Shown here: one piece after another, positions 369 through 37,538 of the stretch
Layout of the letters: each line of letters opens with the position of its first letter
Position numbering within the stretch: position 1 is the stretch's first letter
Virus record (IMG/VR): IMGVR_UViG_2925919700_000005
Span: 1 to 38,422 of that record
Length of the DNA stretch: 38,422 bases
Source: a virus
Taxonomy: Duplodnaviria > Heunggongvirae > Uroviricota > Caudoviricetes
Reading direction: 5' to 3' (one strand)
Position numbers and translations under genes: made by a program
The notes under the pieces: model-generated
Databases searched by the model: none
What the model was told of the DNA's origin: nothing
What the model saw: only the letters and a program-made list of their open reading frames with translations

Positions 369-667
369 GATTTGCCCTCGCGTGAAAAATATTTTCGATT
401 ATTTATAAAAAAGACTTGACAAAATCAAAAGGTACTGATCCACGGGTGAAATAAAGCGAGTTTTCGGCACCCCGGTTTTTGATGTGCGTGTGAGATTTCA
501 AAACAGGTGCAGTGCAGCCCACCAGCGCGGTCGCTACGCGACTATTAACACCAGCCAATCCCTTTCCTCGCCTCGATCTTTCCCTTCGTTATAAAGCGTT
601 TTAGGCGCTCTCCTGAATGCGCAGATCAGATAAATAATTTTACGCAAATTTAATGGAGGATAACCGG

Positions 668-1222
668 ATGAAAGAAGAATTAACCCTTACAGAAATTTCC
701 CGCTTATACGGCTATACAATTAACGCCGCTAAGAAATGGCAAGAACGAGGAATGCCATTTAACACCAATACACGACGCGTACCGCTCAAGGAAGGGACCG
801 AATGGATAGCAAAAAATATCATCAGTCCACTCAGGGAAACTACTGTCAAAGAACAAATTGACGTAGAGAAATTACGCCGCGAGAGAGCATTAGCGGACGC
901 AGCCGAACGAGAGAACCAGGAAGCAATGAATCTCCTGATTCCCGTCGGTTATATAGAACAGCAACTAGCGGAATATTGCGGGAAAGTGAAGCAGACTATT
1001 TTGCAGATCGCCACAATCGACGCTTTAGAAATTATCGAATCTGCCACTGACCAGAAAACATTGAAGAATAAGCTAAGGGAGATCATCGAGCGTCGTTTAA
1101 ATGAAGTAGGGGACTTGTTCGAAAATGCAGATTTGGGAGAAGACGAGGAAGAAGAATTACCATTAATGGATGAACCGGAAGAACAAGAACCAGAAGAAGA
1201 CGATGAATTTGATGTGTCTTAA
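668..1222 (+). CDS. terminase small subunit-like DNA-binding protein (lambda Nu1-like N-terminus, acidic C-terminus)
   Basis: N-terminus LTLTEISRLYGYTINAAKKWQERGMPF resembles the Nu1 winged-HTH (Nu1 has ...IRTIQNWQEQGMPV, recalled from memory). Start moved to ATG 668, which has a GGAGGA SD; the track start is 653. Confidence 0.55.
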   Translation: MKEELTLTEISRLYGYTINAAKKWQERGMPFNTNTRRVPLKEGTEWIAKNIISPLRETTVKEQIDVEKLRRERALADAAERENQEAMNLLIPVGYIEQQLAEYCGKVKQTILQIATIDALEIIESATDQKTLKNKLREIIERRLNEVGDLFENADLGEDEEEELPLMDEPEEQEPEEDDEFDVS

Positions 1223-3111: not shown

Positions 3112-3246
3112 CTTGAATCCTCCTAAATCTGGATTAATGATTTCTTAAAAAAGAGCGTTAACCGCTCACTATTATTTATATGGGGATTGTATTTTATTTT
3201 TCAACCCCTCACACTTATCTCTTATATATGTATTTATAACAGAGAT

Positions 3247-3403
3247 ATGTTAAAATGTTATTCAGATGTTATCAGACGTGTTAAATGTGTTAAACCGCAG
3301 CACGAATTGCTAAAGCGGAGAGCACGAATTAACCAAATTGATGTATATTCAATCAATTTAGCAAAAAGGCATAGCACTTTTTGCTAAAGCGGTGAGCATT
3401 AAT
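3247..3403. repeat. Phased TGTTA repeats plus two ~24-bp direct repeats (TTGCTAAAGCGG(A/T)GAGCA...)
   Basis: TGTTA recurs five times at ~9-12 bp spacing (3248-3293); TTGCTAAAGCGGAGAGCACGAATT (3307-3330) and TTGCTAAAGCGGTGAGCATTAATT (3380-3403). Confidence 0.6.
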
Positions 3404-3630
3404 TGAGCTATGAATTGTAAAGATTTGTTACAAGATTTTCTCTCAGATCCAAATCTTCACAGGCATATAACAATTTAACACGGTGATAACAATAGGAAGG
3501 AAAATCGGTAAATTTTCACTTTCAATACAAATATTATAACATATTTATCTCGAATTTTCAAGTATACCACCGATCCTACACAGTGTCAACAAAGGATTTT
3601 CAAACCTACACTAGCCCTACACTATGAAAA

Positions 3631-3870
3631 TTGCCCCTGAATTTTGCCCCTGAACCAAAATCCCCTAGATTTCACTATCCCATTTTTGCCCCTGAAACCT
3701 ACTATTTTTGCCCCTGAAATTCTGGGAAACAGTGATTTTGCCCCTCATTTTTGCCCCTGAAATGCCAATAATTGCCCCTGAAAATCTAATTTTTGCCCCT
3801 GAAATTTGCCCCAGAAAAGGATTGGTGAGAAAAACTCTTTATAAAACATTAACTTAGCGAGGGGCAAAAG
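3631..3870. repeat. Iteron-like array of ~9 direct copies of TTTTGCCCCTGAA with one inverted copy
   Basis: Copies at ~3631, 3642, 3683, 3705, 3736 (variant CTCA), 3748, 3772, 3790, 3805 (variant CCAGAA); inverted copy GAGGGGCAAAAG at 3859-3870; spacers are 10-30 bp and irregular. Confidence 0.8.
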
Positions 3871-4012
3871 CGGGGGATCGGGTGTGCATAGATATTATAT
3901 AACACATTCGCTACGCTCATGTGTAAAACCAAAAACAACAAATAACCAAAAAGATATTAGGAGGGCGTAGCCCGACTGCGCGAAGCGCTAACCAATTACT
4001 TCTAGTAACACT

Positions 4013-4240
4013 AATTTAAACTAGATGATACTAGATGGTCTTAGAAGGAATTAACTAGTTTGCTCGCTCGCTTCGCTCACTCTCAAACGTCTGCGACGCC
4101 ACTGCGTGGCATCGAGAATCACTTCTGAAAGGATTTTCTTGAAAGGGATTTTAAACTAGTTACTAACTGATTCTAGAAAGATAGTAATAATCACTTTGAA
4201 GATAATAGTAGTTAACTGGTTACTAGATGATTCTAGATCA
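4013..4240. repeat. Three copies of a ~17-25 bp ACTAGATGAT(A/T)CTAGA-type direct repeat flanking a GC-rich structured core
   Basis: ACTAGATGATACTAGATGG (4020-4038), AACTAGTTACTAACTGATTCTAGAAAG (~4153-4180), AACTGGTTACTAGATGATTCTAGATCA (~4212-4238); GC-rich inverted repeats in 3961-4110. Confidence 0.6.
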
Positions 4241-4266
4241 CTTTAATGATCATGAAAGGTATTGGT

Positions 4267-4296
4267 TATCCCTTCGGGATTGCAACCTTCGGTTGC
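4267..4296 (+). other. Two tandem UUCG-tetraloop hairpins
   Basis: ATCCC-TTCG-GGAT and GCAACC-TTCG-GTTGC back to back. Confidence 0.5.
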
Positions 4297-4500
4297 TAAA
4301 TTGCTTCCGGATTATTATTTCTCCAAAAGAAAGATTCTTATATTCTAAAGATACTTCTTCGTTTTGATGATGATTTAATCAAAATCTATGAAGGAGGCGA
4401 AGCCGACTGAATACCAATTCCTTTCAAATTAGACAAAAATTTCTCGTTATAAATAATAGTGAACTTACTTTGATTCACTTTCTTTTAGAGGATTTCCACT

Positions 4501-4953
4501 ATGATCAATACTAAAACTCCTTTCATTCTTCTGGGTCTGAACCATGATGATAATCTGGCTATGATGCATGTTTTCGCTAATCGTGGTTATAACATCATTC
4601 GTCATTCCGAAGACTCCAATTTCTCAACTGCTTTCTATGCTCTTAAACGTAATGGTCGCCCTACGGTGATCGTAGACTGCTTTACTGATGAAGGTCGTGA
4701 ACAATACAACAACATTCCGGCAATTATTGTTCGTGATGACCTGCCGTTTGATGTTCGTGAATATGACGTTGATTTAGGCTCTTACTATGGGATCGCCGAT
4801 CTTGACCAGATTATGGCTGATTATGGTAAACAACCCGCTCAGGAAGCCCCAGAACACGATGAACAAGACGAAGATGACGACGACTACACACCAATCTGTT
4901 TCTCTTCTCACGGTGGCTTCTACGGTTACGATGAAGGCTTAGATATGCTGTAA
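4501..4953 (+). CDS. hypothetical acidic protein (150 aa); N-terminal pattern faintly resembles a receiver/flavodoxin-like fold
   Basis: GAGGA SD; CGTTATAAATAATAGTGA box 40 nt upstream; C-terminal run EHDEQDEDDDDY; alternating hydrophobic strands FILLG / YNIIRH / VIVDC / PAIIV. Confidence 0.6.
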   Translation: MINTKTPFILLGLNHDDNLAMMHVFANRGYNIIRHSEDSNFSTAFYALKRNGRPTVIVDCFTDEGREQYNNIPAIIVRDDLPFDVREYDVDLGSYYGIADLDQIMADYGKQPAQEAPEHDEQDEDDDDYTPICFSSHGGFYGYDEGLDML

Positions 4954-5406: not shown

Positions 5407-5502
5407 TAAATTTCTATCATAAATAAAAATGTTCCGGTGGTGATGCCGGAACTAGGAGGACCAATATCATTATCGCAAAACCGTTTAAGGGGAATTACTA
5501 CT

Positions 5503-6333
5503 ATGAATACTGTTACTGCTATGAATACTGCTGTTAAAACTGCTTCCGTGTCTCTGGTTGTTGATAACACCAAACCGCTGACCATGTCTACTTTGCAGAT
5601 CGCGCAAATGATGGATCGCGTAGACCGCCACCGTGATATTAAGCGAACTGTTGACCGTCTCGTTTCTTCCGGTGTAATTGTCCACACGCCAACGGCGCGC
5701 GAACAACTGGAAGATAAATTTGGTCGTTCTCGTGAAATTGAAGTTTATCTTCTTGATGAACGTTCGTCATATATTGTTGTTGCTCAAATTTCGCCAGAAT
5801 TTACCGCTTTTATCGTTGATGAATGGAAGCGACTGAAAGAAGAAAATGAAAAACTTCGCTCTACTCCGGTTAACCCGTATGCAGACTTTGAAGAAACCGA
5901 TTGGATCGAACTGGCATTAAAGAAAACTCGCGAAAATAAAAAGCTGATTGAACTTCATGTTCGCAAATCCGTAGATAGCCATTCAATGACCCGTCTGTTA
6001 GGAGCTAAAAAGGGCGCTACGAAGGTTAAAGAAGCACTGACGGCCTTGCGTACTGCTGGCTACATTGAGCGCGTCTACGATGAAAATAACAAGCCGTGTG
6101 GGTATGTTGCTAATGACTCTTCTCTGTCTTTCTGCCGCATGAATGCTCACTACCAACTTGAGTTTACTGTTGATGTTCTTCCTGTGCTGGTTGAATTGGG
6201 TGTTCTGGAAGAAGAACAAAAAGCAACTCTGAATCTTCCTAAGCCGAACAACACTATTCTGATTCAAAATAAAGCTGCTAAACAGATTCGTGAATCAGGT
6301 AACGTAATTTCCCTTGTTGATTTTGGGATCTGA
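5503..6333 (+). CDS. Rha-family phage regulatory protein / antirepressor-like
   Basis: N-terminal segment LTMSTLQIAQMMDRVDRHRDIKRTVDRL matches the Rha-type DNA-binding pattern as I recall it; start chosen at ATG 5503 (AAGGGG SD) rather than the track's GTG 5437. Confidence 0.55.
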   Translation: MNTVTAMNTAVKTASVSLVVDNTKPLTMSTLQIAQMMDRVDRHRDIKRTVDRLVSSGVIVHTPTAREQLEDKFGRSREIEVYLLDERSSYIVVAQISPEFTAFIVDEWKRLKEENEKLRSTPVNPYADFEETDWIELALKKTRENKKLIELHVRKSVDSHSMTRLLGAKKGATKVKEALTALRTAGYIERVYDENNKPCGYVANDSSLSFCRMNAHYQLEFTVDVLPVLVELGVLEEEQKATLNLPKPNNTILIQNKAAKQIRESGNVISLVDFGI

Positions 6334-7373: not shown

Positions 7374-7458
7374 ACAACCCCCTTTAATTAATACCCGTAT
7401 TTATCAAAATATCAACAATTTAATAAATACCTTCATATTTCGTAATGAGGGTAATTAC

Positions 7459-9363
7459 ATGAAACTGATTTCAAATAAGGCAAAATTAAAAAAGATTCTT
7501 AAAAATATCTCTGCGGCAATTCGCCCACCTAAAACGATGAAACCTAGCGAATGGGTAGAGGCTAATGTAGTTGCAACCGATGGTGTTAAAGCCGGATCGC
7601 TAATTAAATTGCATCCCTTCCAACGTGGAATGATGGACGCGATCACCGAAGACCGTAGAAAAATTGTGTTTAAATGTTCGGCACAGTTGGGTAAGACCAT
7701 GATTCTTAACGGAATTATCTTCCATCGGATCGCGAGTAACCCTACTAATATTGGGGTGTTGCAAAGTAACGTTAGAGAACTAAATTCTTGGATCGCTGGT
7801 AAGGTGAAGCCAGTATTAGAGGCAACGCCAGAATTAAAGGCGATGATCACCGACAAATCAGACCGTAATGCCGTTAACAACTCATCGATTATTCAGCTTC
7901 GTAACGGATCATTCATGTATTTCATGTCGCTGAACAGTCCATCACACTTGCGCGGTAAAACACTCCCTTTGATTATTCTTGATGAAGTTGATGCGGCTGA
8001 TGAGTCAGACGAAGGGAACCCGATCCAGCTAGCGGAACAACGCGCAACCACTTTCGGGGAAGATGCAAGGATCGTAATTGCTTCCACTCCAACCGCTCGT
8101 GATGGGGCGATTAACCAACAATGGGAACTCTCGGATAAGAGAAAATATCATGTCGTTTGCCAGCATTGCGGACACAAGCACGTAATGGAATGGAGTAACG
8201 TACATTTCGATTGGCATACGATTAACGGTAAATCATTACCCAACCCAGATACAGCCGTTTACCGTTGCCCTGAATGTGAAACCGACTGGACCGAAGGGGA
8301 TCGCCTACGTGCTGTTGCTCAGGGAGAATGGGTCGCCACCGAACCAAACGCGGAAGTAATCGGTTTTCATGCTAACCGCCTTATGTCTCCGTTTAGTTCT
8401 ATCCGTGCGTGTGTGGTGGACTTTGCTGATAGCTACGCGAATATGTCGCTGGCAACGTTCTATAATGTGGTGCTCGGTGAAACCTTCGATGATCTTAACG
8501 AAGACCGCACAGCCGACGAATTAGAAACGCTGAAAACTGATATTAGCCTAGACAATATTCCTGATGATGTACTGGCTCTGGTTGGTGGAGTTGACCAGCA
8601 AAAAGACCGTCTGGAATCTACCTTGCTGGGTATTTCTCGTAAAGGGCTATGCGTAGTTGATCACCGATCATTCTATGATGTGAACTGCGAACGCCACGAA
8701 TCACCAGCATATAACCAGCTTTACAACTTCCTGAAAGCGAAATTCTATACCCGATCCGGTCAACGAATCCCGATGTTATCTGCTTTCGTGGACTCATCGA
8801 ACGGACGAGCTACAAACGTGATCTATCGATTCTGCACACAATGGCAAAACCTAACAGCCATTAAAGGGGCAAGCAATGTTGATGCTCCAATCCTTCCGGT
8901 CAAGGACACAAGAACGGGTGGTTTTACTCTTAAAATTCTGGGCGTAAACAACCTTAAGACGATGATCCGTGAAATGATTAACCGGAACTTGAGAGACAGC
9001 GATCCTCATACGGTCTTCCAGATTGGTGACGTTCCTGATGACTATTGCGAGCAATTGTTATCTGAACAGTTGAAACGGCAGGGTAATACCACACGTTGGG
9101 TAAAAGTTGGTCAGCAACGAAACGAGGCTCTCGACTGCCTGGCTTACTCCTATGCTGCTTCTCGCCATGTACTCAATAAAATGTCATGGGAAAAACTCGA
9201 AGCCATCAAAGATAGTTTGAACCGTGAACCAGAAGAACCCGTAGAAGCTCCTAAATCGCAATCTAACGAGCAAATAGAAGAAACTAAGCCAATCACACGA
9301 CCGCAACGTCAAAACATCGCCAGACGTCCAAATAGAGGCCGTAGCTGGGTAACATCGTTCTAA
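7459..9363 (+). CDS. terminase large subunit (lambda gpA-like ATPase/nuclease)
   Basis: Walker A CSAQLGKT and Walker B LPLIILDEVD; Cys/His cluster CQHCGH...CPEC; 634 aa, immediately upstream of the portal gene. Confidence 0.9.
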   Translation: MKLISNKAKLKKILKNISAAIRPPKTMKPSEWVEANVVATDGVKAGSLIKLHPFQRGMMDAITEDRRKIVFKCSAQLGKTMILNGIIFHRIASNPTNIGVLQSNVRELNSWIAGKVKPVLEATPELKAMITDKSDRNAVNNSSIIQLRNGSFMYFMSLNSPSHLRGKTLPLIILDEVDAADESDEGNPIQLAEQRATTFGEDARIVIASTPTARDGAINQQWELSDKRKYHVVCQHCGHKHVMEWSNVHFDWHTINGKSLPNPDTAVYRCPECETDWTEGDRLRAVAQGEWVATEPNAEVIGFHANRLMSPFSSIRACVVDFADSYANMSLATFYNVVLGETFDDLNEDRTADELETLKTDISLDNIPDDVLALVGGVDQQKDRLESTLLGISRKGLCVVDHRSFYDVNCERHESPAYNQLYNFLKAKFYTRSGQRIPMLSAFVDSSNGRATNVIYRFCTQWQNLTAIKGASNVDAPILPVKDTRTGGFTLKILGVNNLKTMIREMINRNLRDSDPHTVFQIGDVPDDYCEQLLSEQLKRQGNTTRWVKVGQQRNEALDCLAYSYAASRHVLNKMSWEKLEAIKDSLNREPEEPVEAPKSQSNEQIEETKPITRPQRQNIARRPNRGRSWVTSF

Positions 9364-15317: not shown

Positions 15318-18300
15318 ATGCAGTCGATCCAATTTAAACGAACAAATGTTTCTGGCAAAAAACCAACGCCGGAACAATTACAGGTCGGTGAGGTGGCAAT
15401 CAACCTTAAAGACCATGTTATTTTTACCAAAGACCGAGATCATGAAGTAGTTCAAATCTCTGTTTCTCCTGAAACTCACGCGGCACTAGAATCTAAAGTT
15501 GATGCTAACAAACAAGAATTGGATAGCACAATTGCAGTAAATGACCGCAATATTCACGCTAAAGTAGATGAAATTAAACAAACTACTGATTCTACTATCG
15601 CAGCAAATCACGCAGAAATTAACAATAAAGTTGATGTAATTAAACGCGAAACCGACGCGACAATCGAGGCCAATAAAAATAAAGCTGCTTCCGATCTTGC
15701 TGGTGTTAAAGCTGAATTGTCGGATACTATCAACGCTAATAAAAATGCGGCTGCTGTAGCAACTCAGGAACTGGACACCCGCATCAATAAAAAAGTTGAT
15801 GATATTAAATCCCGTACTGATGCAACCATCGCAAGCAATCACAAAGCAATCAATGACAAGGTTGATTTGATTAAGGCAGAAACTGACCGCACTATCGCAG
15901 CAAATCAAGCCTATGCGGAAAATCAGTTAACTGACACCTACAATAACCTTACTGGTGTGATTGCAGCTAATAAGCAAGAGGCAGCGGATAGCGTCGCAGC
16001 ATTAACCCGTGATGTTGAAGCCAAAAATTCAGCAATTCATAGCAAAGTTGACAATAACAAGTCTTACACTGATTCTGAACTTGCACGTTTAGAAAGCCGT
16101 ATTGATGCAGCCGATGGATCTGCTGATGGCAAGTACATCAAAAAACACGTAAACACTTATACTGATGGTTATTTGCTGTCTAAGACCGCAAACTATTTTG
16201 ATGATCCAAATGCGCGTAATCTTAATTACTTTGGTGCATTCCGCATGAATGACCTGGCGGGTCATATTGCAATGATCTTGCATGTTCCGCATCCATCTGG
16301 TGTTAATCATGCTCGTGGCTTTGAGTTCACTTATGGGTCTAATCCGGTTCATACGGTAAGAACATACGGCTATGATGAATTGGGTCATTTGGCATATTCT
16401 CACCGCATGTATCATGAAGGTGATAAACCTACTCCTGCCGAAATTGGCGCATATTCGAAAGCAGAAATTGACCGACTGTTCCAGAAGACGCTTAATTTTG
16501 GGATCGAGGGTGGTTGGTTTAAACTAGGCACTTTGACAATGCCACAGCAACACGGTCGTAGTGCTAAGATCCGCTTAGTTGGTGGTAACGGTTATAACGT
16601 CGGGATGAATGGACAAGCCAATATTATCGAATTGGTGATTCGATGCGGCAACAATAGCCCGAAAGGTGTTGTATTCAATGCGTATTATACTATTTGGCAT
16701 TATGAACAACATTTTTGCGCTATTCCAACCGATGGCGACAATTACGATCTTTACGCTTACTACGGTGCACATACAGGATTTGTTTTAGCAGAATATCAAG
16801 TTTCTTCCGGTGGTGTTTCTTTAAACCTGTTGGATACTCCTGAATATCTGGGTGGTGAAAAACCTGTTGCAGATGAAATTTTTGATGCTCTTAACATTTC
16901 ATCGTTCACTAACTTTAGCAACCGTGGAACGTTAAATTTTGCGGGAAACCATCAAGGCCAATATGACATTGAGCATTTGAACGAACAACAAACTAACAGC
17001 AAAAAGATGTTGCGTCGCTTCCGTAGTTCTGCTCCTGCCACTATCTGGCATGAGACAGTTGATGATAACGCATATCGTCTTGCTACTGGATACGAAGATA
17101 CAAATCAGGAATTATTGCTGACAGCAACAACCGGGTTACATGTCAAGAGATTAACATTGGATGGTGGTGCTGCTGGTGGAAATGCTGGTATTGATATTCG
17201 TCGAGGACCAAACGAATCAAGCCATTTTAATTTTATGGATTATCGAACTGGTCAAGATGTTCGTAATGGCTGGTTTGGTTTTGGTGATTTGACGACCAAA
17301 GATTTTATTTGGTGGAACGATAACGGTCAAAACTCGATAAACTTGATCGAAAACGGTGAATTGCATATTACTGGCGGTAAAGGCCAGAAAATTGTAATGA
17401 ATAGCGAAGTTGCATTATCTGAAAATGCTCGTTTGGCTGTTAAAGGTGGCAATTATGGCTTAATTTTTAGAAATGATGGTACTGGTTTCCATATACTGAC
17501 TACCGATTTAAAAGATTCTTTTGGAAATTGGAATAATCGTAGACCATTCAGCTATAATTTTGATGATGGTGGACTATATTTAGGTGGCACTGAAACTGCT
17601 CGTTGTTTGCATCTGGGAATTGATGGTAGCACCCGTCTTGAGGAGAACTTAGTTTTCAGGGCGGGATCTCGTCAATCAATGGACTATATTGAAATGATCC
17701 ATTGGGGTAACAGTAATACCGCTCGTGACAACGTTTTGAGTATGAAAGACTCGAAAGGATTCCTTGCTGAATTTGAACGCGTGGGTGGGACTAACGGCGT
17801 TAAAACCAGATTCTTTGGTGAAACCTTCACTGACGGTACATTATACCTAAATCAGATGAATAATAGCTCTGAACGATTCTCTATCAACAATTGGGGAAAT
17901 TCAGAAGTTGGACGCGCGGCAGTAATGGAAATCGGTGATTCCAAAGGTTATCACTTCTATACTGAACGCAGGACAGATAACAGTTTGGCGTTTGATGTTG
18001 CTGGCGCTTTTACTGTGCATGGACCTAACGGAATAACCATCAAAAACTCAACTGGTGCACGCCATATCTGGTTTAGAGATGATAGCGATGCAGAAAAGGC
18101 TGTTATCTGGGCTACAGATGAGGGTATTTTACATATACGAAATAATCATGGGGGTTCATTTAGTCATCACTTCCAGGGTGCAATGATTAAAGCGGGAGAG
18201 CAAGTTCCTTATAATAGTGAATACGCTCTTATCCGTGGTGAGGTTTCTGGTGGTGCATGGGATGACTGGCGCAACCGTCCTGCTGGTATTCTCTTAGATT

Positions 18301-18839
18301 GTCAGGATTCACATACCCAAGCATATTCAATTTGGAAAGCAACTCATTGGGGTGTTGATCATCTTGCGGCAATGGGTGTTCATGCTGGCGGTGGTCAAGC
18401 TACCGTAATGATGCATATGAACAAAGGCGGCTGGTATTCATGGTCTGCAAATGGTGATTTCACATCTAGTGCGTCGGTTTACTGTAACGATGTTTATATT
18501 CGTTCCGACCGTCGTCTGAAAATTAACGTTGAAGACTACGAAGAAAATGCGGTAGATAAGGTAAATAAACTAAAAGTTAAAACCTACGATAAAGTTAAGT
18601 CTCTTTCTGACCGCGAAGTCATCGCACATGAGATTGGTATTATCGCACAGGATTTACAAGAAATTTTACCGGAAGCTGTTAGCACTTCTAATGTCGGATC
18701 TCTTGATAACCCAGAAGAGATTTTAACAATTTCTAACTCTGCTGTGAACGCGCTTTTAATTAAAGCGGTCCAAGAAATGAGCGAAGAAAATAAACTTCTT
18801 CGTGAACGTCTTGCTGCAATTGAAGCTAAATTAGGGTAA
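15318..18839 (+). CDS. long tail fibre with C-terminal S74 intramolecular chaperone (autoproteolytic) domain
   Basis: N-terminal ~250 aa of ~22-residue repeats (KVDxIKxxTDxTIAANxxxIN); C-terminal YIRSDRRLKINVEDYE...LLIKAVQEMSEENKLLRERLAAIEAKLG is the S74 signature with a predicted cleavage at S|D. Confidence 0.85.
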   Translation: MQSIQFKRTNVSGKKPTPEQLQVGEVAINLKDHVIFTKDRDHEVVQISVSPETHAALESKVDANKQELDSTIAVNDRNIHAKVDEIKQTTDSTIAANHAEINNKVDVIKRETDATIEANKNKAASDLAGVKAELSDTINANKNAAAVATQELDTRINKKVDDIKSRTDATIASNHKAINDKVDLIKAETDRTIAANQAYAENQLTDTYNNLTGVIAANKQEAADSVAALTRDVEAKNSAIHSKVDNNKSYTDSELARLESRIDAADGSADGKYIKKHVNTYTDGYLLSKTANYFDDPNARNLNYFGAFRMNDLAGHIAMILHVPHPSGVNHARGFEFTYGSNPVHTVRTYGYDELGHLAYSHRMYHEGDKPTPAEIGAYSKAEIDRLFQKTLNFGIEGGWFKLGTLTMPQQHGRSAKIRLVGGNGYNVGMNGQANIIELVIRCGNNSPKGVVFNAYYTIWHYEQHFCAIPTDGDNYDLYAYYGAHTGFVLAEYQVSSGGVSLNLLDTPEYLGGEKPVADEIFDALNISSFTNFSNRGTLNFAGNHQGQYDIEHLNEQQTNSKKMLRRFRSSAPATIWHETVDDNAYRLATGYEDTNQELLLTATTGLHVKRLTLDGGAAGGNAGIDIRRGPNESSHFNFMDYRTGQDVRNGWFGFGDLTTKDFIWWNDNGQNSINLIENGELHITGGKGQKIVMNSEVALSENARLAVKGGNYGLIFRNDGTGFHILTTDLKDSFGNWNNRRPFSYNFDDGGLYLGGTETARCLHLGIDGSTRLEENLVFRAGSRQSMDYIEMIHWGNSNTARDNVLSMKDSKGFLAEFERVGGTNGVKTRFFGETFTDGTLYLNQMNNSSERFSINNWGNSEVGRAAVMEIGDSKGYHFYTERRTDNSLAFDVAGAFTVHGPNGITIKNSTGARHIWFRDDSDAEKAVIWATDEGILHIRNNHGGSFSHHFQGAMIKAGEQVPYNSEYALIRGEVSGGAWDDWRNRPAGILLDCQDSHTQAYSIWKATHWGVDHLAAMGVHAGGGQATVMMHMNKGGWYSWSANGDFTSSASVYCNDVYIRSDRRLKINVEDYEENAVDKVNKLKVKTYDKVKSLSDREVIAHEIGIIAQDLQEILPEAVSTSNVGSLDNPEEILTISNSAVNALLIKAVQEMSEENKLLRERLAAIEAKLG

Positions 18840-20349: not shown

Positions 20350-20606
20350 CCAATTCTAAATAAACATATCGAATTAACTTAAGAGGAAACAAGAATGAAT
20401 ATTAATGAAATGTTAGCCGCACTCTCTCCGAAACGTGAATCTTTGACCATCGGTGGATTCACTTTCTATGCTCGCCCTATGTCAGTAAAAGAATTTAACG
20501 AACATGTTTTCAATACTGATAAAGAAGACCGTGATGAACGTTCTATTCTTCGTTGTATTGAAGATGAAGACGGTAAGCCAGTATTTGAATCTATGGAACA
20601 AGTTAA

Positions 20607-20615
20607 GGCACTGTA
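20607..20615. repeat. IS10 target-site duplication, left copy (GGCACTGTA)
   Basis: Identical 9-mer immediately flanks both ends of the element. Confidence 0.95.
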
Positions 20616-21944
20616 CTGAGAGATCCCCTCATAATTTCCCCAAAACGTAACCATGTGTGAATAGATTTTGAGTAAGCAGGGTTGCAGCCACGAGTGAGTC
20701 TTCCCTTGTTATTGTGTAGCCAGAATGCCGCAAAACTTCCATGCCTAAGCGAACTGTTGAGAGTACGTTTCGATTTCTGACTGTGTTAGCCTGGAAGTGC
20801 TTGTCCCAACCTTGTTTCTGAGCATGAACGCCCGCAAGCCAACATGTTAGTTGAAGCATCAGGGCGATTAGCAGCATGATATCAAAACGCTCTGAGCTGC
20901 TCGTTCGGCTATGGCGTAGGCCTAGTCCGTAGGCAGGACTTTTCAAGTCTCGGAAGGTTTCTTCAATCTGCATTCGCTTCGAATAGATATTAACAAGTTG
21001 TTTGGGTGTTCGAATTTCAACAGGTAAGTTAGTTGCTAGAATCCATGGCTCCTTTGCCGACGCTGAGTAGATTTTAGGTGACGGGTGGTGACAATGAGTC
21101 CGTGTCGAGCGCTGATTTTTTCGGCCTTTAGAGCGAGATTTATACAATAGAATTTGGCATGAGATTGGATTGCTTTTAGTCAGCCTCTTATAGCCTAAAG
21201 TCTTTGAGTGACTAGATGACATATCATGTAAGTTGCTGATAGGTTTCCAGTTTTCCGCTCCTAGGTCTGCATATTGTACTTTTCCTCTTACTCGACTTAA
21301 CCAGTACCAACCCAGCTTCTCAACGGATTTATACCATGGCACTTTAAAGCCAGCATCACTGACAATGAGCGGTGTGGTGTTACTCGGTAGAATGCTCGCA
21401 AGGTCGGCTAGAAATTGGTCATGAGCTTTCTTTGAACATTGCTCTGAAAGCGGGAACGCTTTCTCATAAAGAGTAACAGAACGACCGTGTAGTGCGACTG
21501 AAGCTCGCAATACCATAAGCCGTTTTTGCTCACGGATATCAGACCAGTCAACAAGTACAATGGGCATCGTATTGCCCGAACAGATAAAGCTAGCATGCCA
21601 ACGGTATACAGCGAGTCGCTCTTTGTGGAGGTGACGATTACCTAACAATCGGTCGATTCGTTTGATGTTATGTTTTGTTCTCGCTTTGGTTGGCAGGTTA
21701 CGGCCAAGTTCGGTAAGAGTGAGAGTTTTACAGTCAAGTAAGGCGTGGCAAGCCAACGTTAAGCTGTTGAGTCGTTTTAAGTGTAATTCGGGGCAGAATT
21801 GGTAAAGAGAGTCGTGTAAAATATCGAGTTCGCACATTTTGTTGTCTGATTATTGATTTTTGGCGAAACCATTTGATCATATGACAAGATGTGTATCTAC
21901 CTTAACTTAATGATTTTGATAAAAATCATTAGGGGATTCATCAG
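20616..21944 (-). mobile_element. IS10 insertion sequence, complete (1329 bp)
   Basis: Ends CTGAGAGATCCCCTCATAATTTCCCC (inside end, 20616) and ...AAAATCATTAGGGGATTCATCAG (outside end, 21944); length 1329 bp; encodes the 402-aa IS10 transposase. Confidence 0.97.
20629..21837 (-). CDS. IS10 transposase
   Basis: 402-aa translation MCELDILHDSLYQFCPELHLKRL...HGYVLGKL matches the IS10/Tn10 transposase as I recall it; start is 107 bp inside the outside end. Confidence 0.97.
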   Translation of the reverse strand: MCELDILHDSLYQFCPELHLKRLNSLTLACHALLDCKTLTLTELGRNLPTKARTKHNIKRIDRLLGNRHLHKERLAVYRWHASFICSGNTMPIVLVDWSDIREQKRLMVLRASVALHGRSVTLYEKAFPLSEQCSKKAHDQFLADLASILPSNTTPLIVSDAGFKVPWYKSVEKLGWYWLSRVRGKVQYADLGAENWKPISNLHDMSSSHSKTLGYKRLTKSNPISCQILLYKSRSKGRKNQRSTRTHCHHPSPKIYSASAKEPWILATNLPVEIRTPKQLVNIYSKRMQIEETFRDLKSPAYGLGLRHSRTSSSERFDIMLLIALMLQLTCWLAGVHAQKQGWDKHFQANTVRNRNVLSTVRLGMEVLRHSGYTITREDSLVAATLLTQNLFTHGYVLGKL

Positions 21945-35858: not shown

Positions 35859-37538
35859 TTAAATTCCAAATTCCTGTAATGGACCTGGTATTTCCTCTTC
35901 TGGTTTCCAGTTCTTATCTGTCAGCATGTCTAAACATGGATGCAGAACAAGCCCGTTACTCTCCAGAATCTGCCTATCATTGATAGTTTTCAAATCGACA
36001 AAGATTTGTCCTTTCCTCGTTCCTCTTGAATTTTCTATTACAACTCTCTGGGTCTTTCCATCGATGTATTCCAGTACAAACAAGTTTTTGTTTCTGTCAA
36101 TCCTGCTACACCCGATCCGCTTTAGAGCTTGCTTAATCTTAAACCGGACCTTTAGTCGTTCCTCGTTGTAAACATCTTCTAAATCAAATTCTGCGAGCTT
36201 CTCCCAGCCTTGAGAGTCAACAGAATACATTTCCTCTTCTGCCATCTTGATCTGATTGTAGAGTGTTTCACGCTCGCTATTGAGGGTAGTAATCTGATCG
36301 GCTAGTTCCTTCGTTGCTCCTGTCATAGCAGAAAGGGCAATCAGGTTATCAATCTTGCGTGATATTTCATCAACCTGTACTTTCAACGCCGGAACCGGAT
36401 TAGCCTTATCCTCAGCAATCCAGATTTTATCAGCCAGCAATTGCAATACAGCTTTCTCTAATTGATCACCTCGAAAACTCCAGTTTGGATGCTCGCAATC
36501 AAGTCTACGTGAACGGGTCGCATCACATGTATAACGATACTGGTCAGAACGTTTGTTCGTTCCCTTCACTTTAACCATAGCGCAACCGCAATGATCACAT
36601 TTCAATAGGCCAATACCACTAAGCAGGGGGATCGGTTTAACTTCTTCCTTGTCTCCAAAGTTCCATGCTCTAGCACCAATATTTTTCTTAAGGTGATAGA
36701 ACGTAGCATCATCAATAACACGAGGGTAATAATCCTTTAACTCATAGTTAACACCATCAACAGAGACCTCCTTGATACCAATCAAAGCGCGGGTATGAAA
36801 CAACCTTTCAACCATTGCCCGTGACCATTTTGAATGCTTCTTGTTGCTTACTGCTGGTGGTGGTGCATATGTCTCGTTAAGGTGATCCAGTATTTCGGCG
36901 GTTGAACGTCCATTCTTCCGTAATTCCACAATCTCCTGAACAACAGGGAAGTACACCGGATGAGGCAGCACATAACCGGAAGTGGTATCAGTCCACCACA
37001 TATTCTTTCCAACTTCCTCGATTGCCACTGCCGGATTCTGGGGATTTTCTTGATGCGATTTAATCTTAATCAGTGCGCTTGAATTAGTACGATTGCGCTT
37101 AGTCTGGCTTTCCTCATTACCACGGATGAATAAAAGGATGGAGAACATCAGGTCCATCGGGTTAGCGGTAACAGTATCCAGCGAGTAGATCTTGTTATCC
37201 ATGCCAGTAACAATGGTTATCCCCCTACGGATTATCGAAAGGAATAACTCCTGCGCACTGACAATATCGGCACGGGATAAACGGTCCAAGTTTTCAATGA
37301 ATAGCCAGCTACCAACAGGAACGGATCTACCAATTGCATCAAGGAAACGAGATAGCGCCCCTGTTTTAGAGTTAGCACCTTTAAACGCAGATACACCCAG
37401 ATCCTGATAATCATTTACCAGTTCTAAGTCATACTTTGCCGCAATCTCTCTCGCCATCCTGATTTGTCGTTCATAACTCGAACCATCACTCTGACGCATA
37501 GACGAGAAGCGAATATACGAATATAGTTTAGTTTTCAT
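35859..37538 (-). CDS. large serine recombinase (resolvase/invertase-type catalytic domain + recombinase domain + zinc ribbon)
   Basis: N-terminal YIRFSSMRQSDGSSYERQ (catalytic Ser motif), ENLDRLSRAD, Cys cluster CDHCGCAMV...YRYTCD, C-terminal coiled coil; 559 aa. Confidence 0.85.
   Translation of the reverse strand: MKTKLYSYIRFSSMRQSDGSSYERQIRMAREIAAKYDLELVNDYQDLGVSAFKGANSKTGALSRFLDAIGRSVPVGSWLFIENLDRLSRADIVSAQELFLSIIRRGITIVTGMDNKIYSLDTVTANPMDLMFSILLFIRGNEESQTKRNRTNSSALIKIKSHQENPQNPAVAIEEVGKNMWWTDTTSGYVLPHPVYFPVVQEIVELRKNGRSTAEILDHLNETYAPPPAVSNKKHSKWSRAMVERLFHTRALIGIKEVSVDGVNYELKDYYPRVIDDATFYHLKKNIGARAWNFGDKEEVKPIPLLSGIGLLKCDHCGCAMVKVKGTNKRSDQYRYTCDATRSRRLDCEHPNWSFRGDQLEKAVLQLLADKIWIAEDKANPVPALKVQVDEISRKIDNLIALSAMTGATKELADQITTLNSERETLYNQIKMAEEEMYSVDSQGWEKLAEFDLEDVYNEERLKVRFKIKQALKRIGCSRIDRNKNLFVLEYIDGKTQRVVIENSRGTRKGQIFVDLKTINDRQILESNGLVLHPCLDMLTDKNWKPEEEIPGPLQEFGI

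Follow-up and report, generated by a model that had tools for sequence, protein, structure and literature searches.

A probable lambda-type packaging recognition region upstream of a Nu1-like small terminase gene in an uncharacterized family of temperate phages

The DNA at ~480–650 of the window—which denotes the whole stretch of 38,422 nucleotides (38.4 kb) analyzed here—is judged, by a narrow balance of probability, to be the terminase packaging recognition region (cos) of a lambda-type temperate phage. As read from sequence comparison, this region would be cosB-like, would probably contain or adjoin cosN, and seems to overlap the promoter of the gene for the small terminase subunit (TerS). 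Packaging recognition is the best explanation because the region is exchanged together with the DNA-binding domain of TerS, because the site is unique, strongly selected, and placed upstream of TerS, and because of the protein families involved. The same enzyme class acts in lambda on a cos located directly upstream of Nu1.

The ~38 kb window is a complete E. coli prophage inserted in ycdX, with the attachment site at its left end and a large serine recombinase (integrase) encoded at its right end (35859–37538). Its head and tail genes comprise a gpA-family large terminase subunit (TerL), a lambda-type portal, a fused protease/capsid protein, a tape measure protein, and tail fibers; an endolysin is encoded as well. 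In E. coli UTME-12, homologous DNA begins 22 bp past the truncated ycdX, and the insertion locus of the Salmonella relatives is likewise ycdX. This locus is used in most E. coli and Salmonella hosts, and hicB in strains PE15 and L3Cip3. The prophage family is present in about 60 of 5,426 complete E. coli genomes (about 1%) and also in Salmonella. The phage collection yielded neither DNA-level similarity to any record nor a virion sequence from this family, and the nearest TerL in it is 44.5% identical; a literature search with both strands of the core and with the ycdX prophages returned nothing relevant and no paper with the sequence. It is an uncharacterized family of temperate phages.

Within this family two lineages are distinguished by the DNA upstream of TerS—type A, to which the window belongs, and type B. 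The elements discussed below are the following, in window coordinates:

408–421, plus strand: left edge of the conserved cassette, AAAAAGACTTGACA, where the homology of relatives with differing left genes begins
459–476, no strand assigned: first GC-rich patch, GAGTTTTCGGCACCCCGG, common to E. coli types A and B and variable in Salmonella and the P0065 lineage (alignments)
~480–900, plus strand: exchange tract, consisting of upstream DNA 480–667 and TerS codons 1–77, the DNA-binding domain (L3Cip3 comparison, DNA and protein alignments)
507–526, no strand assigned: tandem 5-mer pair GTGCAGTGCAG-CCCACCAGC in the GC-rich core (alignments, direct reading)
527–542, no strand assigned: invariant 16-mer GCGGTCGCTACGCGAC with the dyad GTCGC-TAC-GCGAC, arms at 530–534 and 538–542 (37 type A sequences)
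560–567, no strand assigned: CCCTTTCC with the first CTTTCC (562–567); CCCTT[T/A]CC conserved in type A
575–591, no strand assigned: GATCTTTCCCTTCGTTA with the second CTTTCC (578–583); conserved in E. coli type A, with only GATCTT kept in Salmonella
602–609, no strand assigned: TAGGCGCT, invariant in type A, a 13-bp gap in type B
618–646, plus strand: inverted repeat TGCG(C/T)A...TACGCA around TAAATAA, common to types A and B, with TAAATAA and TACGCA invariant
668–1222, plus strand: TerS, small terminase subunit, with a Nu1-like winged-helix N-terminal domain, a coiled middle, and an acidic tail; ribosome-binding site GGAGGA at 655–660
7459–9363, plus strand: TerL, large terminase subunit of the gpA family (Pfam GpA_ATPase 5e-62, GpA_nuclease 2e-45)

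The upstream DNA was compared in 38 distinct E. coli and Salmonella sequences from RefSeq E. coli, IMG/VR, metagenomes, and assemblies, whereby the counts of invariance refer to the 37 complete type A sequences. In every one of the latter—whatever its left neighbor—a cassette of 257–261 bp (408–667 in the window) extends from the A-tract at 407 to the ATG, and 41% of its columns are invariant. The longest invariant run is the 16-mer, which is identical in 37/37 sequences (run-length permutation p = 3e-5), followed by TAGGCGCT (602–609), TAAATAA (631–637), and TACGCA (641–646). Outside the 16-mer, the cassettes of E. coli and Salmonella are 57–63% identical, and the non-coding DNA that flanks the 16-mer is 57–78% identical; between the same hosts TerS is ~66% and TerL 58% identical. 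The GC-rich core to which the preliminary description had drawn attention does hence hold the strongest conserved non-coding element of the cassette.

This 16-mer, which occurs once in the window even if three mismatches are allowed, is a candidate for the primary terminase recognition element—a first TerS site and/or cosN. Beyond the family, the collections contain it at chance-level counts in unrelated, mostly GC-rich DNA. Two unrelated viral contigs (L082, ~4636–4651; L083, ~1750–1765), which share the short motif CTTCACTACGCTG, carry exact copies in hairpin-rich DNA that is non-coding; this is probably a coincidence.

Further elements surround the 16-mer. At the left cassette edge, TTGACA (416–421) is a perfect −35-like hexamer preceded by an A-tract; it is unique in the window, and CTTGAC is invariant. 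The patch GAGTTTTCGGCACCCCGG could be a cosQ- or cosN-like part. The two members of the 5-mer pair shift in concert between lineages (TGCA/TGCA, TTTA/TTAA, ATCA/TTCA), and TAGGCGCT includes GGCGCT, which is similar to GGTCGCT inside the 16-mer. Closer to the gene, the −10-like hexamer at 635–640 reads TAATTT in the window and TAAAAT or TACAAT in relatives; together with the inverted repeat at 618–646 it probably forms the TerS promoter and operator.

The distinction of the region does not lie in all of the properties that had initially been ascribed to it. The GC enrichment in the ~230 bp before the Nu1-like gene is real, but it is narrow and confined to about 435–585: the interval 420–652 as a whole has 46.8% GC compared with 41.8% for the window, and about 13% of all 233-nt windows equal or exceed this value. 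The GC-rich string quoted as an example, CAGCCCACCAGCGCGGTCGCTACGCGAC, sits at 515–542 (75% GC). The best 28-nt window (506–533, 75% GC) falls into the top 0.05% and the best 60-nt window (503–562, 61.7% GC) into the top 0.2%, and the remaining intergenic stretches of the window have 27–46% GC. The reported CTTTCC direct repeats are present at 562–567 and 578–583, yet at chance level—10 repeated 6-mer pairs were observed in the region and 6.1 were expected from shuffles, 15% of which reach 10. The pair is also not kept, as E. coli subtype A2 retains only the second copy and the Salmonella relatives only the first; as candidate binding sites of the small subunit these repeats are not supported. 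With regard to cosB-like repeats, the alignments show the conserved blocks 527–542, 560–567, 575–591, and 602–609, and no motif is clearly repeated at least three times. Nor is the label 'structured' supported: RNA folding z-scores are +1.24 on the plus strand and −0.22 on the minus strand, RNAalifold on 37 relatives yields only two short palindromes that score equally on both strands, with no compensatory changes in the consensus fold, and Rfam gives no match at E ≤ 1.

The gene downstream of the region had been named a Nu1-like small terminase, an assignment that profile comparisons bear out. Along its full length, TerS matches PHROG 57 ('terminase small subunit'; E = 2e-16). The TerS family profile aligns with lambda Nu1 in hhalign at 88% probability (E = 3e-6), the alignment spanning residues 4–87 (84 columns) and Nu1 residues 2–105, and the helix-turn-helix segment alone gives E = 4e-5 in BLASTP. 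On the grounds of these matches the Nu1-like identity is reasonable. As a difference from lambda Nu1, TerS hits no Pfam family at E ≤ 0.01, Phage_Nu1 included; no NCBIfam family matched, a PDB sequence search gave nothing useful, and a search of the genome collection with TerS peptides confirmed no distant relatives. Translation more probably starts at 668 than at 653 (open reading frame 653–1222), because relatives carry this start in RefSeq/PGAP and because GGAGGA is found at 655–660.

The predicted TerS model (pLDDT 76) displays an N-terminal winged helix followed by long helices. Its fold search returned weak, non-significant matches (E > 0.3) to MerR-type domains and to 6hn7/6hlk chains. 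One of these chains, 6hn7_B (probability 0.82, 24% identity to the TerS N-terminal domain, E > 0.3), is taken by us to be a small-terminase DNA-binding domain; the search output shows the entry title only. The same weak matches (E > 0.3) link this domain to Rpp-TerS (6hn7, 6hlk) of the cos-packaged E. coli phage-inducible chromosomal islands. Unlike the situation in these islands, the cassette was never found without TerS in 5,426 E. coli genomes, and neither there nor elsewhere in the searches was a satellite carrying the site encountered.

An argument for a role in packaging comes from the natural exchange of this DNA between lineages. Strain L3Cip3 is 97–100% identical to the window at 60–~480 and again beyond ~900, and only 40–67% identical at ~480–900—with the exception of the promoter-like stretch, which is shared. 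Besides the GC-rich core and the blocks downstream of it, the exchanged tract contains residues 1–77 of TerS, i.e., the winged-helix domain, whose recognition helix is YTINAAKKW in type A, as opposed to YSLPAVTKW in type B. Type B, which comprises L3Cip3, ETEC1739, CFSAN061761, and the more distant P0065 lineage, lacks the 16-mer throughout and carries ACACTCCACAACGAGC or ACGCTCTAGAACGAGC in its place. Site and domain match without exception: 29/29 distinct type A domains are accompanied by the 16-mer and TAGGCGCT, and 5/5 type B domains by the B core and no TAGGCGCT. The recognition DNA hence co-varies with the TerS DNA-binding domain, to which it is physically linked. With the site only 126 bp away from TerS, linkage alone could yield such a co-exchange; against pure linkage stands the right boundary of the tract, which coincides with the end of the DNA-binding domain.

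TerL varies in a different manner. It is mosaic within the family and exists as two types that are 59% identical but share their first 16 and last ~45 residues (window; L001, 27387–29294), and it is plausible that TerS and the portal are contacted by these identical tips. Site and TerL types occur in all four combinations—A/1 in the window, A/2 in UTME-12, B/1 in CFSAN061761, and B/2 in L3Cip3—so that the core, judged from these sequences, tracks the TerS DNA-binding domain and not TerL. The 16-mer is hence more likely a TerS-specific element than a TerL-specific nicking site, as one TerL type accompanies two unrelated cores.

This pattern is what the lambda/21 paradigm predicts for cosB and the N-terminal domain of the small subunit. 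Between lambda and phage 21, packaging specificity pairs cosB with the small-subunit N-terminal domain. By analogy, the recognition DNA and the DNA-binding domain of TerS appear to be swapped jointly in the natural variants described here, and the C-terminal part of TerS and TerL assort independently. The two cases differ in that cosN is common to lambda and 21, while the tract swapped here takes in the GC-rich core, which is the most conserved part.

The comparison with lambda cos (cosQ–cosN–cosB) can be extended to the entire layout. In both systems, a GC-rich element with a partial dyad lies upstream of a Nu1-like TerS gene, further conserved blocks follow between core and start codon, and a gpA-type TerL (here with the Pfam matches given above) and a lambda-type portal are present. 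The 16-mer lies directly upstream of its TerS gene and ends 126 bp before the ATG, compared with 190 bp for lambda cosN. On the other side, the core is unrelated to GGGCGGCGACCT, a clear triple R-site repeat is missing, and the IHF consensus WATCARNNNNTTR has no match at 400–670. TerS and TerL do also not form one operon starting from cos as in lambda: unlike in known lambda-type systems, 6.2 kb lie between them, occupied by unrelated genes of either strand—including an Ant/Rha-like gene (5437–6333)—and this separated layout is kept in the E. coli and Salmonella relatives.

No contig ends within the region were found by exact-pattern scans of viral and metagenome collections or among contigs encoding TerS variants. 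The ends of phage-sized contigs (35–37 kb) lie to the left of TTGACA, at a distance of about 130 bp, where the attachment site is presumed to be. The preliminary description had placed a cohesive-end site and small-subunit binding sites in this segment as their expected location in a lambda-type system. The binding sites fit the co-exchange with the TerS DNA-binding domain, while the missing IHF consensus, the distance of TerS from TerL, and the lack of contig ends weigh against a full lambda-type cos. The place was right and the reason broadly right; what speaks for it is the invariant dyad core and its co-exchange, not repeats or 'structure'.

Packaging could then proceed as follows. The winged-helix N-terminal domain of TerS would bind the lineage-specific DNA, that is, the GC-rich core with the dyad 16-mer (527–542) and the blocks at 560–609, and would thereby position the gpA-type TerL. 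TerL would make its staggered nicks at the core or immediately to its left, and packaging would run through the TerS gene towards the right. The final ~50 bp (618–660) might double as promoter/operator and ribosome-binding site of TerS. The nicks could fall in or beside the 16-mer if they are directed by TerS; symmetric nicks 5' of each GTCGC arm, which would give 13-nt ends, are pure conjecture. A more far-reaching version, which we hold only tentatively and would sooner doubt than adopt, regards the ~420 bp tract (~480–900) as a self-contained packaging-specificity cassette that moves independently of TerL and is placed by attP rather than by TerL. Hereby, recognition would occur wholly via TerS on the dyad core without IHF, and the gpA-type nuclease would cut with little sequence preference.

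Among the alternatives, a pure transcription control region deserves the most attention, even if we regard it as rather improbable. It would comprise a promoter with operators for a phage regulator or for autoregulation by a MerR-like TerS, and the packaging site would lie elsewhere. A promoter must indeed be located within 369–667, because the genes left of TerS are on the opposite strand or belong to the integration module, so that no upstream late operon can read TerS. The conserved TTGACA, the −10-like hexamer, and the inverted repeat that flanks it are candidate signals, and a winged-helix protein that binds upstream of its own gene would give rise to the same co-variation. However, the promoter-like part (618–660) is common to types A and B, whereas the lineage-specific part is found 60–190 bp upstream of the ATG, with TTGACA even further left. 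TTGACA has no usable −10 at 16–18 bp and the −10-like hexamer only a weak −35; accordingly, a sigma-70 scan of 1–1400 (−35/−10, 16–18 bp spacing) finds no complete promoter. Operators usually recur at several promoters, while the 16-mer is unique. No other GC-rich conserved non-coding element was seen, and the stretch before TerL is 85 bp long with 27% GC. A pac-type site, at which TerS binds and TerL cuts imprecisely for headful packaging with no defined cohesive ends, is unlikely as well. The gathered evidence does concern TerS-linked specificity rather than cutting, and the core is not tied to a TerL type, as such a site would have it. Yet the site precedes the TerS gene, which is also the case in lambda, and is not contained in it, and gpA-family large subunits and lambda-type portals, both encoded here, are associated with 5'-cohesive-end packaging.

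Two further explanations leave packaging aside. The Nu1-like protein might be an excision or recombination directionality factor for the neighboring serine integrase that would bind the conserved blocks close to the attachment site. After excision, the TerS gene adjoins attP and the integrase on the circle, and the N-terminal fold weakly resembles Xis/Rdf-type winged helices. This role is very unlikely, as the full-length match is to a small-terminase family, the Nu1 similarity extends past the winged helix, no alternative TerS candidate was found in the prophage despite its complete head genes, and the conserved blocks are 250–500 bp away from the junction. Serine integrases are not known to need accessory sites. 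Least credible of all is a role at the RNA level, as a structured leader or as a small RNA. The hairpin GUCGC-UAC-GCGAC, rich in GC, and another inverted repeat speak for it; the non-significant folding z-scores, the strand-equal consensus fold free of compensatory changes, and the lack of an Rfam match described above speak against it. An accessory site of attP was considered and rejected, given the attachment site at the left end of the window. LexA, CRP, FNR, and DnaA boxes gave poor matches only (by eye), and of a T4-type late promoter, TATAAATA, TAAATA alone is conserved.

If the packaging reading is confirmed, it would provide the packaging site and the specificity determinants for an uncharacterized temperate phage family. 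Types A and B would then represent two natural specificities on otherwise near-identical backgrounds, on which the DNA choice of Nu1-like proteins could be tested, with a possible use in the design of cos plasmids or transduction tools. Should also the specificity-cassette version hold true, the family would offer a naturally occurring means of re-targeting cos packaging. What is generally understood of lambda-type packaging would stay as it is; the element would be an ordinary lambda-style one in an unstudied phage family.

Several minor observations were made along the window. IHF consensus matches are found at 48–60 (AATCAATTACTTA), near the left junction, and at 7410–7422 (TATCAACAATTTA), in the 85 bp (27% GC) that separate TerL from a leftward gene. 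A copy of IS10 (~20570–21900; transposase 20629–21837, minus strand; RNA-OUT 21830–21899) is inserted inside the tail gene block, and the prophage copy in the window may be defective for this reason. The C-terminal part of a tail fiber protein of 1,173 aa (15318–18839) matches distal subunits of T4-type long tail fibers (PHROG 1699, E = 5e-135), and genes of T4-like (Krischvirus) phages share 73–87% identity with short stretches at 171–272 and 9233–9288. Among phage records, the single related one, 'Escherichia phage DCP80' (PQ671644.1, 141 kb, filed under Tevenvirinae), bears a ~26 kb lambda-like structural module that is related to the window prophage and joined to T4-type genes. It contains rIIA twice in opposite orientations and is either a hybrid or a chimeric assembly; it was checked for termini, and its layout, with the lambda-like module beside T4-type genes, gave none that are usable. 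A replication origin at the upstream site was rejected, the better candidate being an array of about nine copies of TTGCCCCTGAA at 3631–3817, which lies within 1.4 kb (3112–4500) devoid of open reading frames of at least 90 aa and resembles either origin iterons or an array of binding sites for a regulator.
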